Notes under the pieces: generated by a model
Databases searched by the model: none
What the model was told of the DNA's origin: nothing
Seen by the model: the letters and a program-made list of their open reading frames with translations, nothing else
In this document: positions 17,569-27,283 of the stretch, piece after piece
How positions within the stretch are numbered: the first letter of the stretch is position 1
Layout: each line of letters begins with the position of its first letter
NCBI GenBank assembly: GCA_039809905.1
Contig: JBDHVY010000001.1
Span: 900,001 to 932,000, forward strand
Source of the DNA: Candidatus Babelota bacterium
Lineage (GTDB): Bacteria; Babelota; Babeliae; Babelales; Vermiphilaceae
DNA: 32,000 nucleotides
Direction: 5' to 3'
Position numbers and translations under genes: made by a program

Positions 17569-18189
17569 ATGAAACTCTTGTCATGGAATGATTCTGAATC
17601 ACTTGAGTTCCTGGTTGATACATTAAAAAAAGGCAATATTGTTCTTGCCGCTGGTGATACTGTATTAGGCCTTCTGGCCGATATATCAGAAGGAGGATGT
17701 GCGCAGCTTGATGCAATTAAAAAGCGATCAAAACAGCCTTATTTATTATTGGTTGAAAATACGCAAAAAGCCCTTAATCTAATTGAAAAAGATGCCCTCG
17801 AAATATTTCAAGCTGAAAAAATAATGAATATTTGTTGGCCGGGTCCAGCTACCTTAATTTTAAAAGCGAAGGCAGAAGTTCCTGAGGGGGTAAAGTCTCC
17901 TGACGGTACTATTGCCATCCGAGTGCCAGATCATGCTGGATTGCTTCAACTGCTGCATCATTTTGATGCCTTATATTCAACAAGCGCGAACCTTAAGGGT
18001 GAACCTGTTCCTGCTCATCTGGAAAAAATAGATAAAAGCATTCTGGAAGCTGTTTCTGCTATTGTTTTGAATGATAATGAATCCTCATCAACGCTTGCTT
18101 CCACCATTATTGACTGCACGGGAGATAAGCTCAAGATTGTTCGGCAAGGAGCTTTTCCGGTTGCAAAATTGGTGAGCTTGTTGGAATAA
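17569..18189 (+). CDS. tsaC: L-threonylcarbamoyladenylate synthase (TsaC/YrdC family)
   Basis: YrdC-fold motifs: GNIVLAAGDTVLGLLAD, KKRSKQPYLLLV, WPGPATLIL, IAIRVPDH, LYSTSANLKGEP and STIIDCTGDKLKIVRQGA. The ORF track starts at TTG 17536. ATG 17569 is preferred because of SD AAAAGG with a 5-nt spacer and a TATAAT box at 17523-17528. Confidence 0.85.
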   Translation: MKLLSWNDSESLEFLVDTLKKGNIVLAAGDTVLGLLADISEGGCAQLDAIKKRSKQPYLLLVENTQKALNLIEKDALEIFQAEKIMNICWPGPATLILKAKAEVPEGVKSPDGTIAIRVPDHAGLLQLLHHFDALYSTSANLKGEPVPAHLEKIDKSILEAVSAIVLNDNESSSTLASTIIDCTGDKLKIVRQGAFPVAKLVSLLE

Positions 18190-20065
18190 AATCTTGTTTG
18201 ATTAGCTTAAAATTGTTGATGAGGAATTTATGTTCTTTTTTAAACGATGCAAGAGCTCTTCCATCAGGCAAGTTGGGATGAAATAGAGTTCTTTTTTTAT
18301 TTTTTCTATAACAACAATACGTGTTAAATAATAGTGCTTGAGATAGCGTTAGTGATGTTTTGATGTCATTGAGACAAGCAGTAGCTTCTTTTGTGTGTGG
18401 GTATGCCAGAAATAATCTTACTTCAAATTTGTTTTGGCATGGATTTACTTGAGTTTGCTTAGTTACTAAGATTGATTCAAAACAAGGATGAAGAGCATAT
18501 TGTTGATTTCGACCTAGATTGAGAATTTTATCGCCTTCCATGTCCCAGAGTTCTGTTTTTTTTCCATGAGTTAAGAGTAATCCATCATAAGTGAAATGCA
18601 TATGTTGAACTATGTATTCAGTATCGATTTTTATTTTAGTAAGACGATCAGGAAAACCAGATATGTTCCAAAATGCTAAAGTTGATAAGGCAAAATGAGA
18701 AGAGAGTGAACCGTGCAAAGATACTATATGATTGCCTGTTGTATCTGCAATGATATTATGAATGCAGGGACCAATTTGACTGGTGTCTAATAGTGTTTTC
18801 TTGTTGTTTTCGTCCATAATGCATAGAGTTGTTGCATTTTTGTTGTAACAATAGATTCCTTTTTGAGAAATAAAAATATCTTTAAGGCCAGAATAAGTAT
18901 CTTCTGAAGATATACATTTTTTTTCAATAAGCTTATCATCTTGAATAGTGAAAAATAATTTTTTTTCTCTTTCCATAAGTATTGTCAGGAGATTCGAATT
19001 TTTATTAATGTTGGCAAGTTTTGCATGATATAGATTATCAAATTTTTTGTGATCTTTTATATTATTGGGTTTTTCCAGGTCGTATAAAATCAAGCGGTCG
19101 TCTTTTGTTGTACAGATTATATGGTTGCCATGAGAAGAAAAAAGATATGAACTTACATTATTCCAATCGTTTTTTAAAGAGGTTTTCTGAATTTTTTTTT
19201 CGTCTTTTATATAATGAAAAAGACTGTATTTACTATCGTTTTCAACAACTTTTGATTGTATAATATAGTTTTCATTGGGGTGAATTGTTGCAGTGTACCA
19301 TGAATAATTTTGATGATTATCGACCAATTCAATTGAGTTGTTTTCGCTCATGAAATACAAAAGAATATCAGTCTTTGCTGTCTTTCCGTATTTGTAGGTA
19401 TAGAGAATAATATAGCTATCTTGCGGACTAAAAAAAGCATGTGAGTAACCAGGGAAACTTTTAATACAGCGTTGTTCTTTTGTTGTCCATAAATTAATTT
19501 GACATGTTTTTTCGTTCATATTTTCCAAAAAATAATCGCCATTATGGCTATAGGAAAGAATTATAGGCTTTTTTGAAGAATGATATTTTAATTTTTTTAT
19601 ACGTATTTTTTCAAAAAAATATTTGTATATTGTTTTTTTGAGTAACCTCGTATTAATGGATTTAAGGGCAAGAGCATTGATTATGCTTTTTTCTGTCAAA
19701 ATTTCTTCCATGAGTTGTGCATAAAAAATAGGACATTTCAATTGTGCTGCAGCATCCATTAGTTTTGATTGTTCATTTCTGCCTAATGTTATTAAGAAAT
19801 TTTGATGAGACATTATTATATGAGAGCACCAAAAATCAAAAATTTCTTTATCTATTTTAAGGGGGATTGGATCTTTTTTTGTTGCTTTATATTTTTCTTG
19901 CAGCACAGTTAACAAATTTGATTGTTGTGCTATTGCATTATCAACACATATCAAATGCTTATCTTCAGTAATGACCCAAAGATAAGGTGTTTTTTGTAAG
20001 ATATTCATTGCCTTAAGGTGAGATAATATATTGATTAATAGAGCAAAAAGTAGTAAATAATTCAT
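18131..20065 (-). CDS. secreted protein: N-terminal Skp1/BTB (POZ)-like domain fused to paralog-family repeat body
   Basis: The signal peptide is MNYLLLFALLINILSHLKA. Residues ~25-125 (DNA 19691..19993), WVITEDKHLICVDNAIAQQSNLLTVLQEKYKATKKDPIPLKIDKEIFDFWCSHI...LMDAAAQLKCPIFYAQL, follow the Skp1 pattern ([24 protein letters not shown]...DPVPLPNV...ILKKVIQWCTHH...LILAANYLDIKGLLD). The remainder is homologous to the ORFs at 21958..23280 and 23305..24768. Confidence 0.8.
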   Translation of the reverse strand: MNYLLLFALLINILSHLKAMNILQKTPYLWVITEDKHLICVDNAIAQQSNLLTVLQEKYKATKKDPIPLKIDKEIFDFWCSHIIMSHQNFLITLGRNEQSKLMDAAAQLKCPIFYAQLMEEILTEKSIINALALKSINTRLLKKTIYKYFFEKIRIKKLKYHSSKKPIILSYSHNGDYFLENMNEKTCQINLWTTKEQRCIKSFPGYSHAFFSPQDSYIILYTYKYGKTAKTDILLYFMSENNSIELVDNHQNYSWYTATIHPNENYIIQSKVVENDSKYSLFHYIKDEKKIQKTSLKNDWNNVSSYLFSSHGNHIICTTKDDRLILYDLEKPNNIKDHKKFDNLYHAKLANINKNSNLLTILMEREKKLFFTIQDDKLIEKKCISSEDTYSGLKDIFISQKGIYCYNKNATTLCIMDENNKKTLLDTSQIGPCIHNIIADTTGNHIVSLHGSLSSHFALSTLAFWNISGFPDRLTKIKIDTEYIVQHMHFTYDGLLLTHGKKTELWDMEGDKILNLGRNQQYALHPCFESILVTKQTQVNPCQNKFEVRLFLAYPHTKEATACLNDIKTSLTLSQALLFNTYCCYRKNKKRTLFHPNLPDGRALASFKKEHKFLINNFKLIKQDFIPTSSPILQPEKLLAEQS

Positions 20066-20104
20066 GTTTTTTTATACGAGTGGTAGAGATTTATTGTTAG
20101 TTTA

Positions 20105-26416: not shown

Positions 26417-26497
26417 TGTACTCCTTTTTTTAATGTTACTATCAAAAAATAGTAATTACTGCTGTTTTATGCAAGAAAAAGTTGTGATAATGCATCT

Positions 26498-27283
26498 TTA
26501 ATGCATAAGTAAATAATGAAATACATGATTTTGAATAAAAATAAAGATGAGTGCACCAAGTGCAAGAAATGGTCCAAACGGGATTTTAGTATTTTGTATA
26601 TCATGATGGAAAGATCTATTTTTCTGCGCAAAAAGAATAGTTAGTATGCCATATAGTGAACCAATGATGGAACCTATTGTAATACTTATCCAGCAACCAA
26701 TGAATCCGGTAAATGATCCAATAAATACAAGGAGATCAAAATCACCTTCACCAATGCCATCAATGTTGCGCAAATATTTAAAAACAGTACTGATAATGCG
26801 TAAAAAAAGATACCCGAATAATGCGCCACAGATACTTTCTTGAATAGATAATGGTAAAAAACCGTAAATACTCAATACCATGCCAACAGGAACAAGGGAA
26901 ATTGTTGCATGACGTAAAATGAGCATTGTTTCTATATCAGATCTTATTGTTACAATTAATGCTGAACAAAATATAAAGTAGCCAAAAAAATAATGAAGCG
27001 GAATGTAAAGATATACTAATGAAAGAATAACTGCAGTCAACATTTCAATAAAAGGATATAAAAAAGAAATAGGTTTTTTGCACGTTCGGCATTTGCCATA
27101 TAATAACAACCAAGAAATAACAGGAATGTTATCGTACCATGCAATAGACGTATGACATTTTGGGCATGATGACGGAGGCATTACGATTGATTCCCCTCGT
27201 ATGAGACGATATGCCAAAACATTTAAAAATGAACCCCAGCAGAGAAAGAATGGAATTAAAAAGTAGTACGGAATATCATACAA
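26498..27283 (-). CDS. pilD: type IV prepilin peptidase / N-methyltransferase (A24 family)
   Basis: The four-Cys motif is CPKCHTSIAWYDNIPVISWLLLYGKCRTCKKPI. Catalytic Asp contexts are IRSDIETM and GIGEGDFDLLVFIG (GxGDxKL-like), and the protein is polytopic. It has a TTG start at 27283, 1 nt after the rbfA stop. Confidence 0.9.
   Translation of the reverse strand: MYDIPYYFLIPFFLCWGSFLNVLAYRLIRGESIVMPPSSCPKCHTSIAWYDNIPVISWLLLYGKCRTCKKPISFLYPFIEMLTAVILSLVYLYIPLHYFFGYFIFCSALIVTIRSDIETMLILRHATISLVPVGMVLSIYGFLPLSIQESICGALFGYLFLRIISTVFKYLRNIDGIGEGDFDLLVFIGSFTGFIGCWISITIGSIIGSLYGILTILFAQKNRSFHHDIQNTKIPFGPFLALGALIFIFIQNHVFHYLLMH

Follow-up and report, generated by a model that had tools for sequence, protein, structure and literature searches.

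Do a type IV pilin and a prepilin peptidase, encoded among genes for collagen-like fibre proteins and secreted β-propellers, belong with these neighbours to one apparatus, or do the genes only share a site? The question is raised by a stretch of 32,000 nucleotides from Candidatus Babelota bacterium (assembly GCA_039809905.1, contig JBDHVY010000001.1, positions 900,001 to 932,000 of the forward strand; hereafter, the window). Dependentiae (TM6) are widespread, almost uncultured parasites of protists. By comparing the locus with its counterparts in related genomes, we show that it consists of two layers, namely a phylum-wide pilD/pilA pair and an accessory island that is found in one Babeliales clade and occupies the gaps flanking pilA. 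The island, which is probably a host-interaction gene set, contains one or two collagen/BclA_C genes just 3′ of pilD and one to three genes for WD40 propellers with a signal peptide. Taken singly, the components are of known kinds (type IV pilin, PilD, BclA-type collagen protein, WD40/BTB eukaryote-like proteins). What appears not to be described in the searchable literature is their conserved linkage in a Babeliales clade, together with a family of signal-peptide Skp1/BTB-WD40 proteins confined to the flanks of pilA; in literature searches on collagen, pili or BTB in Dependentiae, the locus was not found described.

The genes of the locus are the following (aa, amino acids; AF2, AlphaFold2):

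26498..27283, minus strand: pilD, prepilin peptidase/N-methyltransferase (Pfam)
24914..26416, minus strand: col500, collagen-like fibre protein of 500 aa (Pfam Collagen and BclA_C)
23305..24768, minus strand: par487, short subfamily, signal peptide and WD40-type β-propeller (paralogy, positional ortholog)
21958..23280, minus strand: par440, short subfamily, tandem paralog of par487 (paralogy)
21501..21923, plus strand: pilA, type IVa major-pilin-like protein of 140 aa, no Cys (N_methyl, PilA_Myxo N-terminus)
21067..21471, plus strand: s134, small signal-peptide protein (conserved partner of col257-type genes)
20260..21033, plus strand: col257, short collagen-like protein (GXY triplets, family alignment)
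18131..20065, minus strand: par644, long subfamily, 644 aa, with predicted signal peptide, Skp1/BTB-POZ-like domain, WD40-type propeller and C-terminal helices (AF2 model, Foldseek, Skp1 tests)

The first-pass annotation of this DNA had reported the same eight genes, and all the open reading frames (ORFs) were found again at those positions and strands. Pfam and NCBIfam matches and pairwise alignment agreed with its identification of the pilin, of PilD, of the collagen-like pair and of the paralogs. The kinship of the three paralogs is clear, one pair being 31% identical (E = 6e-34) and the other two 25–26% (E = 2e-20 to 2e-22). Its claim that all eight products are exported or membrane-bound agrees with a hydropathy heuristic: an N-terminal hydrophobic segment was present in 8/8, with a Kyte-Doolittle 10-residue maximum of at least 2.0, compared to at most 1.1 in five cytoplasmic neighbours.

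A convergent pilD/pilA pair conserved across the Dependentiae

About 20 Dependentiae loci around PilD were compared with the proteins of the window. Those from the genome collection are among the matches listed for a contig scan with the PilD alignment, which were at most 52% identical and included many non-Dependentiae; the close relatives were reached by exact-protein look-ups and by one metagenome scan with a narrow alignment (A6). The backbone common to the ~20 loci comprises gltX, a 115-aa gene, an outer-membrane-protein-like gene, rpsU, rbfA and pilD, followed in the opposite orientation by pilA and sua5, and then folC, atpB and atpE. In the window, the housekeeping flanks are sua5, a folC-like ligase gene, atpB and a fused atpE on one side, and rbfA, rpsU, the outer-membrane-protein-like gene and gltX on the other. 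Both genes are visible in 14 Dependentiae loci of the genome collection, among the matches listed; in 8 of these 14 loci nothing separates the convergent pilD and pilA but a gap of 0–133 bp. The two genes form a convergent pair within housekeeping genes that is conserved across the Dependentiae, and the shared backbone, along with their adjacency where no collagen or propeller gene is present, indicates that the pairing of pilin and prepilin peptidase is ancestral and does not depend on the collagen and propeller genes.

In the remaining loci, the gap between pilD and pilA, or that between pilA and sua5, is filled by unrelated lineage-specific ORFs. In loci L008 and L019 these are small paralog pairs, L014 has ORFs that look ankyrin-like by eye, and ORFs of other kinds occupy the gaps of L006, L007 and L010. 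Most of the gap ORFs of these distant lineages begin, as judged by eye, with a hydrophobic signal-like N-terminus. On either side, pilA is bordered by a slot of variable content. In L011 (10884–12611), from a lineage farther removed, the place of the convergent pilA after pilD is taken by an ORF resembling, by eye, a PilB-type ATPase and by further ORFs.

An accessory island in one Babeliales clade

The first-pass annotation had proposed to check whether these genes co-occur in related genomes. Collagen/BclA_C, pilA, pilD and propeller-family genes were found in the same order in nine further loci, all from one Babeliales clade (island loci L085/86, L087/88, L090/91, L092, L093, L096, L097 and L098). 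In a neighbour-joining tree of five concatenated backbone proteins, calculated with no bootstrap, the island-bearing genomes form one clade. Furthermore, the paralogs are not scattered through the genomes: every propeller-family member for which a location could be obtained sits at the pilD-pilA locus, adjoining pilA or sua5. A random spread of the family would, according to the same annotation, have marked the adjacency as incidental.

The arrangements differ in detail (> and < give the orientation). L085/86 reads pilD > col497 > < pilA < 741-aa Skp1_POZ protein < sua5; L087/88 reads pilD > collagen > < pilA < glycosyltransferase, then a 568-aa WD40 protein, < sua5; L090/91 reads pilD > col505 > par484 > < pilA > WD602 > par640 < sua5; and L092 reads collagen > < pilA < glycosyltransferase > 629-aa protein < sua5. 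In L093 a 609-aa propeller-family member adjoins pilA, and in L097 the collagen genes are two in tandem. The slot immediately upstream of pilA is the variable one, being occupied by a glycosyltransferase gene in four relatives (Glyco_tranf_2_4, 69–81% identical among the four) and by col257 and s134 in the genome of the window.

The island proteins diverge fast relative to their neighbours. Compared with L090, col500 is 60% and the propellers are 46–49% identical, against 84% for pilA and 93% for folC; across the loci the identity of the island proteins falls to 29–60%, with order and content still kept.

Pilin and prepilin peptidase

The pilA product has a class III leader, MKYKG/FSLIE, with cleavage before FSLIELMVVVAIMAFLAMIAVP, and matches the type IV pilin models N_methyl (33.2 bits; cut-off 21.2) and TIGR02532 (29.8; cut-off 16.3). 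Over the first 94 aa it resembles the N-terminus of PilA_Myxo (7e-24) more than GspG (2e-6), both scores being far under the full-length cut-offs. The protein contains no Cys, hence no D-region disulfide, and is 41–85% identical across the Dependentiae loci fetched. In a motif scan of the whole 32-kb window, no prepilin motif was found besides that of pilA, and no minor pilins.

PilD passes the Pfam cut-offs for A24_N_bact (3.7e-31, 107.5 bits) and Peptidase_A24 (2.6e-11, 44.3 bits), and both the residues of its CxxC pairs (C40, C43, C65 and C68) and its two catalytic Asp (D116 and D181) are invariant across 22 homologs (alignment A1). Homologs number in the thousands, and the closest ones, 65–75% identical, come from metagenome-assembled genomes named Candidatus Babeliales or Dependentiae. 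A chlamydial origin of the DNA, at first suspected from its GC and gene content, was rejected in view of these homologs and of the synteny with Dependentiae genomes, and the DNA is not from Legionella either. The start codon of pilD is a TTG abutting the stop codon of rbfA (27283–27285), an arrangement suggestive of an operon rpsU-rbfA-pilD. In the database the product (P0008) has 227 aa, 34 aa fewer, and the alignment of the 22 homologs favours the long form. Yeoh et al. place type II secretion, and possibly type IV pilus components as well, among the TM6 core genes, and note two gspD genes and no pilQ. The pilD/pilA pair would serve this type IV pilus/type II secretion machinery of the phylum, whose other genes would be encoded elsewhere.

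Collagen-like proteins and s134

The col500 protein begins with a signal peptide and an N-domain of ~150 aa that looks helical by eye. A Cys-rich knot precedes the 58 GXY triplets, 42 of which have Thr as residue Y, and the chain ends in a BclA_C/C1q-like head. Both parts typical of BclA proteins were recognised, the Collagen model giving 4.7e-24 (84 bits) and BclA_C 41 bits (cut-off 38). Among solved structures, the head matched 9H38, the C-terminal domain of F-BclA of Bacillus thuringiensis, at 7e-22 (~45% identity by count of the alignment), and 1WCK at 1.9e-14. F-BclA has been described as the collagen-like tip fibrillum of the F-ENA endospore pili, with a head that is a trimeric TNF-like jelly roll. 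By inspection, col500 has no exosporium-targeting leader of the kind attached to the ExsF/BxpB basal layer; in its place are the Sec-like signal, the 150-aa domain and the Cys-rich knot. The simplest interpretation of col500 is a trimeric fibre on the cell surface, and its 174 repeat residues would measure ~50 nm by the standard collagen rise.

The col500 orthologs are 41–60% identical over their full length. They lie directly 3′ of pilD in L085, L088, L090 and L097; in L092 and L098, the contigs of which end short of pilD, they immediately precede pilA. Their repeat plan is fixed, with either 58 triplets (in blocks of 25, 15–16 and 17–18) or 70 (53, 8 and 9), and the Cys residues always precede them. 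The repeat region of col500 has a guanine plus cytosine content of 48% vs ~33%; horizontal transfer was considered for it and set aside, the codon composition of GXY being taken as the cause.

The second collagen-like protein, col257, starts with a signal peptide and a CC motif; its 8 GXY triplets lead to a C-domain of 180 aa with no Pfam match. It belongs to a collagen family of its own, and in the alignment with its homologs (P0191–P0195) the number of triplets ranges from 8 to >70 and the CC motif is conserved. Its AF2 model is of low confidence (pLDDT 54) and represents the C-domain as an all-beta β-sandwich. The possibility that this domain is BclA_C was rejected, since there is no sequence similarity past the start of the collagen and the poor model gave generic jelly-roll/CBM-like matches. 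The next gene product, s134, had no match in Pfam, PHROGs or PDB, and was rejected as a free copy of the col257 C-domain (hhalign probability 3.7%, no PDB match). Its homologs follow col257-type genes in L094 (twice) and in L095. At L094 (10001–16163), four collagen-like genes with a col257-type C-domain and two s134-like genes form an array beside prfA, flanked by sugar-nucleotide epimerases and glycosyltransferases. One gene of the array joins a col500-like N-domain to a col257-type head, an instance of domain shuffling.

The propeller family

A profile of the three paralogs was scored exhaustively against 1.84 billion (1.84e9) representative proteins. Approximately 25–30 full-length family members were found, the weaker matches being generic WD40 repeats, and a word-index homolog search with par440 returned only par440 itself. 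Two forms can be distinguished: the short one (440–490 aa) is a signal peptide with a propeller, and the long one (600–660 aa) has a signal peptide, an N-domain, the propeller and a C-terminal motif, SLTLSQALL...PNLPDGRAL. An A/M[DE] junction is kept across the family. The motif of the long form, SLTLSQALLxN...(Y/H)PN(L/M)PDGRAL in its variants, is nearly invariant, with P600, G602, R603 and L605 in at least 90% of the sequences (in par644, window positions 18131–18400).

The positional ortholog of par487 is P0128 in L090 (46% identity), and the closest relative of par440 adjoins pilA in L096 (36%). Positional orthologs of par644 lie beside sua5 in L090, L092, L096 and L097, while the slot in L087 holds the 568-aa member. 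In the short contigs L093 and L098, the family member adjoins pilA. Propellers thus occur on either side of pilA, and the Skp1/BTB-like N-domain belongs to the copy next to sua5.

The AF2 model of par644, obtained from 15 family sequences, has a pLDDT of 82.7 and a pTM of 0.80. It comprises a low-confidence N-terminal helix, taken as the signal peptide, an alpha/beta domain (28–150), a propeller of ~36 strands (152–555) and C-terminal helices. Against PDB, Foldseek matched it to eukaryotic WD40 proteins at ~1e-12, such as ODA16, eIF2A (3wj9) and WDR91, and 8/15 family members match WD40-clan Pfam models (best 4.5e-17), so that the propeller is classed as WD40-type. Against the viral models of BFVD, most of the top matches were BTB/POZ-WD-repeat proteins of Mimiviridae, with both domains aligned over 540–620 columns, at 9–14% identity and TM-scores of 0.25–0.44.

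The Skp1/BTB label given to the 644-aa protein in the first-pass annotation has moderate support. In its favour are the AF2 model, the viral matches and an hhalign comparison of the N-domain with human SKP1, which gave 75.5% probability over 45 columns; against it, the Skp1_POZ model stays below its cut-off. A PDB profile search with the N-domain found nothing significant. In L085 the 741-aa positional counterpart passes the Skp1_POZ cut-off, with 32 bits. This protein was rejected as a member of the propeller family (hhalign probability 0.7%, no match to the family model) but does share the Skp1_POZ N-domain. In appearance, the Skp1/BTB-WD40 proteins are eukaryote-like mimics of adaptors, a sort of protein already noted in TM6 genomes. 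Yeoh et al. regarded the WD40 and F-box proteins of these genomes as host-interaction domains.

Transcription units and neighbouring genes

Between the genes of the island the following elements were found:

24846..24881, minus strand: intrinsic terminator 3′ of col500, 16-bp stem
21924..21955, no strand: bidirectional terminator hairpin between the convergent pilA and par440, 14-bp perfect stem, A/T runs on both sides
20105..20136, no strand: inverted repeat TTGATCTGCA-N12-TGCAGATCAA, 10 bp, perfect, between the divergent genes par644 and col257 (read from the sequence)

The two terminators are strong; a third clean one, also claimed by the first-pass annotation, could not be confirmed. The inverted repeat may be an operator. 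An extended −10 promoter-like sequence, TGCTATAAT, lies just past the col500 terminator, upstream of par487. The spacing from pilD to col500, which has its own ribosome-binding site, is 81 bp, and no terminator was found in this gap. At the other end of the island, sua5 (plus strand) and par644 (minus strand) are convergent and overlap by 59 bp (18131–18189), with no terminator between them, and an identical 59-bp overlap is present in L090.

As for the neighbouring genes, the atpE product (13846–14811, minus strand) is 321 aa long with four ATP-synt_C matches, which we interpret as a fusion of four F-type c-subunits; the Dependentiae loci fetched keep an equally long gene beside atpB. The folC-like Mur-ligase protein (15916–17346, minus strand) is 92–95% identical among the clade relatives, compared to 72–77% for their GltX and 65–70% for PilD. 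An ORF of 1610 aa (5128–9960, minus strand) has no Pfam match at E ≤0.001.

Possible function of the island and alternative explanations

We tentatively favour, at somewhat less than even odds, the reading that the island is an accessory one, specific to the clade, and encodes host-interaction proteins exported through Sec. These would be a collagen fibre on the cell surface and effector mimics of the BTB-WD40 type, with an amoeba assumed as the host. By analogy with Lcl of Legionella, the products are probably exported by a PilD-dependent type II secretion/type IV pilus machinery. All of them would reach the periplasm through Sec and leave it by a PilD-dependent secretin pathway of the type II secretion/type IV pilus type, the main outer-membrane route described for Dependentiae. 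Through its N-domain, Cys knot and BclA_C head, col500 would trimerise into a Thr-rich stalk of ~50 nm, which would probably be glycosylated, retained on the cell surface and able to bind host surfaces, like Lcl and the BclA-type fibres of Bacillus. The Skp1/BTB-WD40 proteins would be directed, as mimics of eukaryotic adaptors, at host proteins or ubiquitin-ligase scaffolds. Their location beside pilD and pilA would favour co-expression with the export and attachment apparatus, not incorporation into a pilus. A more daring version, to which we give little credence, would make of all this a single attachment and delivery organelle, in which BclA-headed collagen fibrils, docked by way of their N-domain and Cys knot, decorate the pilus machinery or are extruded by it, much like the collagen tip fibrillum of the ENA pili of Bacillus, and the same PilD-dependent machine delivers the Skp1/BTB-WD40 ubiquitin-adaptor mimics to the host; if true, eukaryote-like proteins would have an effector route that needs no type III, IV or VI system.

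Several observations weigh against the host-interaction island. The signal peptides were judged by the Kyte-Doolittle hydropathy heuristic only, and a Sec signal is unusual for a Skp1/BTB-like effector aimed at the cytosol; the Skp1_POZ match of par644 amounts to E = 0.008 and 16.8 bits, under the cut-off of 21.9. The shared gene order occurs among fairly close relatives and can be explained by ancestry alone. In addition, L099 (GCA_035455925.1; PilD 69% identical) nests inside the island clade in the same tree, and there pilD and pilA abut, no collagen gene or propeller-family member is present, and synteny is broken directly past pilA. Counting L099 too, the two genes abut with no island in 9 of the 15 other Dependentiae loci that show both of them, among the matches listed. 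Finally, the col257 and s134 cassette, with further collagen genes, adjoins prfA in L094 and L095, and no pil genes were found near it within 10 kb on each side (L094) or in the 7.1-kb contig (L095); the pair present in the window is thus read as a relocated cassette.

On the simplest history, a single gain at the base of the clade would have been followed by a loss in L099; pilD and pilA, which this genome keeps, accordingly do not need the island. Its pilA is followed (11638–17845) by a Ddl-Ddl fusion, by a protein similar to MavL of the Legionella effectors and by a WD40 protein of 747 aa outside the family of the window.

Because of L099, of the empty junctions elsewhere and of the prfA-linked cassette, a serious rival is that the pilD/pilA junction and the pilA-sua5 gap are merely permissive sites, an incidental hot spot in which collagen and propeller genes are tied neither functionally nor by regulation to the pilin and PilD; the collagen fibre would make up a surface layer of its own, and the propellers would act independently. 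We consider this a real possibility, if less likely than not. The same gaps are empty or hold unrelated genes in the distant lineages described above (L006, L007, L008, L010, L014 and L019), the collagen array also occurs beside prfA and sugar-nucleotide genes, and strong terminators and separate promoters divide the island into units. A permissive site, on the other hand, does not explain why order and content are kept in nine further loci despite identities of 29–60%, nor why the propeller-family members that could be placed are found nowhere else; col500 follows pilD at 81 bp with no terminator between them, and the gap genes of the distant lineages, being also mostly signal-like at their N-termini by eye, hint at a common theme.

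The first-pass annotation had put forward as its first hypothesis a composite fibre, in which the collagen-like proteins and/or the propellers would be physically attached to the tip of a type IV pilus, as a fibrillum or an adhesin. The conserved linkage of collagen, pilA and propeller genes is in agreement with this idea, as is the precedent of the ENA pili of Bacillus, whose tip fibrillum is a collagen-like BclA-type protein and provides, with 9H38, the closest solved relative of the col500 head; the Cys-rich or CC motif before the collagen region recalls the ENA connectors. PilY1 is a signal-peptide propeller able to ride on the tip of a type IV pilus and could be counted on the same side. 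We nevertheless regard the composite fibre as unlikely. The sole prepilin motif of the window is that of pilA, there are no minor pilins, and the neighbours have no prepilin leader. A PilY1-like tip adhesin was rejected for the propellers, which are of the WD40 type: the three paralogs have no PilY1/PilC (PF05567) Pfam match, and no PilY1 was found among the 50 best PDB matches. Moreover, the long form has a eukaryote-like Skp1/BTB domain, and pilD and pilA persist with no island in L099 and in distant lineages. Pili were not seen on Babela massiliensis (Yeoh et al.).

Since signal-peptide β-propellers are common bacterial envelope proteins, the Sec-type signals with no evident translocation signal and the fixed position beside pilA and the collagen gene could also mean that the propellers are periplasmic or outer-membrane TolB/BamB-like scaffolds for the pilus/secretin or the collagen layer and not effectors, which we hold very unlikely, given a family limited to one clade while the pilus and secretion genes are phylum-wide, a very fast divergence and a copy number of 1–3 typical of host-interaction genes, and a Skp1/BTB-like N-domain with best structural matches among eukaryotic and giant-virus proteins.

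For studies of how Dependentiae attach and deliver effectors, the locus is a well-defined target. With a collagen gene 3′ of pilD and a private Skp1/BTB-WD40 family around pilA, it offers a concrete, conserved set of candidates for the attachment and host manipulation of these parasites. If the export depends on PilD or on type II secretion, a minimal parasite would be delivering eukaryote-like ubiquitin-adaptor mimics through a type II pathway; otherwise, the locus would still clearly illustrate how a conserved convergent gene pair can be a hot spot for accessory genes.

Comparison with known systems

An accessory slot next to pilA is known from the type IVa pilus systems of Pseudomonas aeruginosa (tfpO/tfpW-Z). 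As in the relatives analysed here, four of which carry a glycosyltransferase gene, the slot by the major pilin gene is variable and strain- or clade-specific; the cargo in Dependentiae, however, is mainly collagen-like and BTB-WD40, not pilin-modification or chaperone genes.

The domain order of par644, a BTB/Skp1-POZ-like domain followed by a WD40 propeller, is that of the BTB/POZ and WD-repeat family of Mimiviridae (R731, R739, L76) and of eukaryotic BTB/Skp1 adaptors, and in both Mimiviridae and Dependentiae the paralog families are expanded in parasites of protists. By contrast, the Dependentiae family has a signal peptide and the PNLPDGRAL motif, is small and is found at one locus, and at 9–14% identity and TM-scores of 0.25–0.44 homology is not established.

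The BclA family of Bacillus (F-BclA/L-BclA, ENA pili) resembles col500 in its GXT-rich repeats and its BclA_C/C1q-TNF-like head, and the ENA tip fibrilla are an example of collagen-like proteins linked to a pilus both in their genes and physically. The ENA pili, however, are not type IV pili, and the Bacillus proteins have an exosporium leader or an ENA-mimicking N-terminal hook and belong to a monoderm spore, whereas col500, from a non-sporulating diderm, starts with a Sec signal and an N-domain of 150 aa, and no pilin-docking motif was found in it.

A further analogy is offered by Lcl of Legionella pneumophila. We know of no linkage of lcl to pilD or pilA. The two proteins differ in the head, which is DUF1566 in Lcl and BclA_C in col500; col500 scored 78 bits with NCBIfam adhesin_Lcl (NF046116; cut-off 500), over residues 186–366 (collagen) only, and is not classed as an Lcl. 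The two share, nonetheless, a Sec signal, an N-terminal segment (helical in Lcl), collagen-like repeats and a C-terminal head (trimeric in Lcl). Legionella is an intracellular parasite of amoebae, and its Lsp type II secretion system, by which Lcl is exported, depends on PilD. Lcl has been described as a collagen-like adhesin with a Sec signal whose surface location requires an intact type II secretion. This same plan, combined with the dependence of Lcl on type II secretion, makes the exporter hypothesis, the second one put forward for this locus, better supported than the composite fibre; if the export of the island products proves to depend on PilD or on type II secretion, the Lcl model of secreted collagen adhesins would be extended to another phylum.

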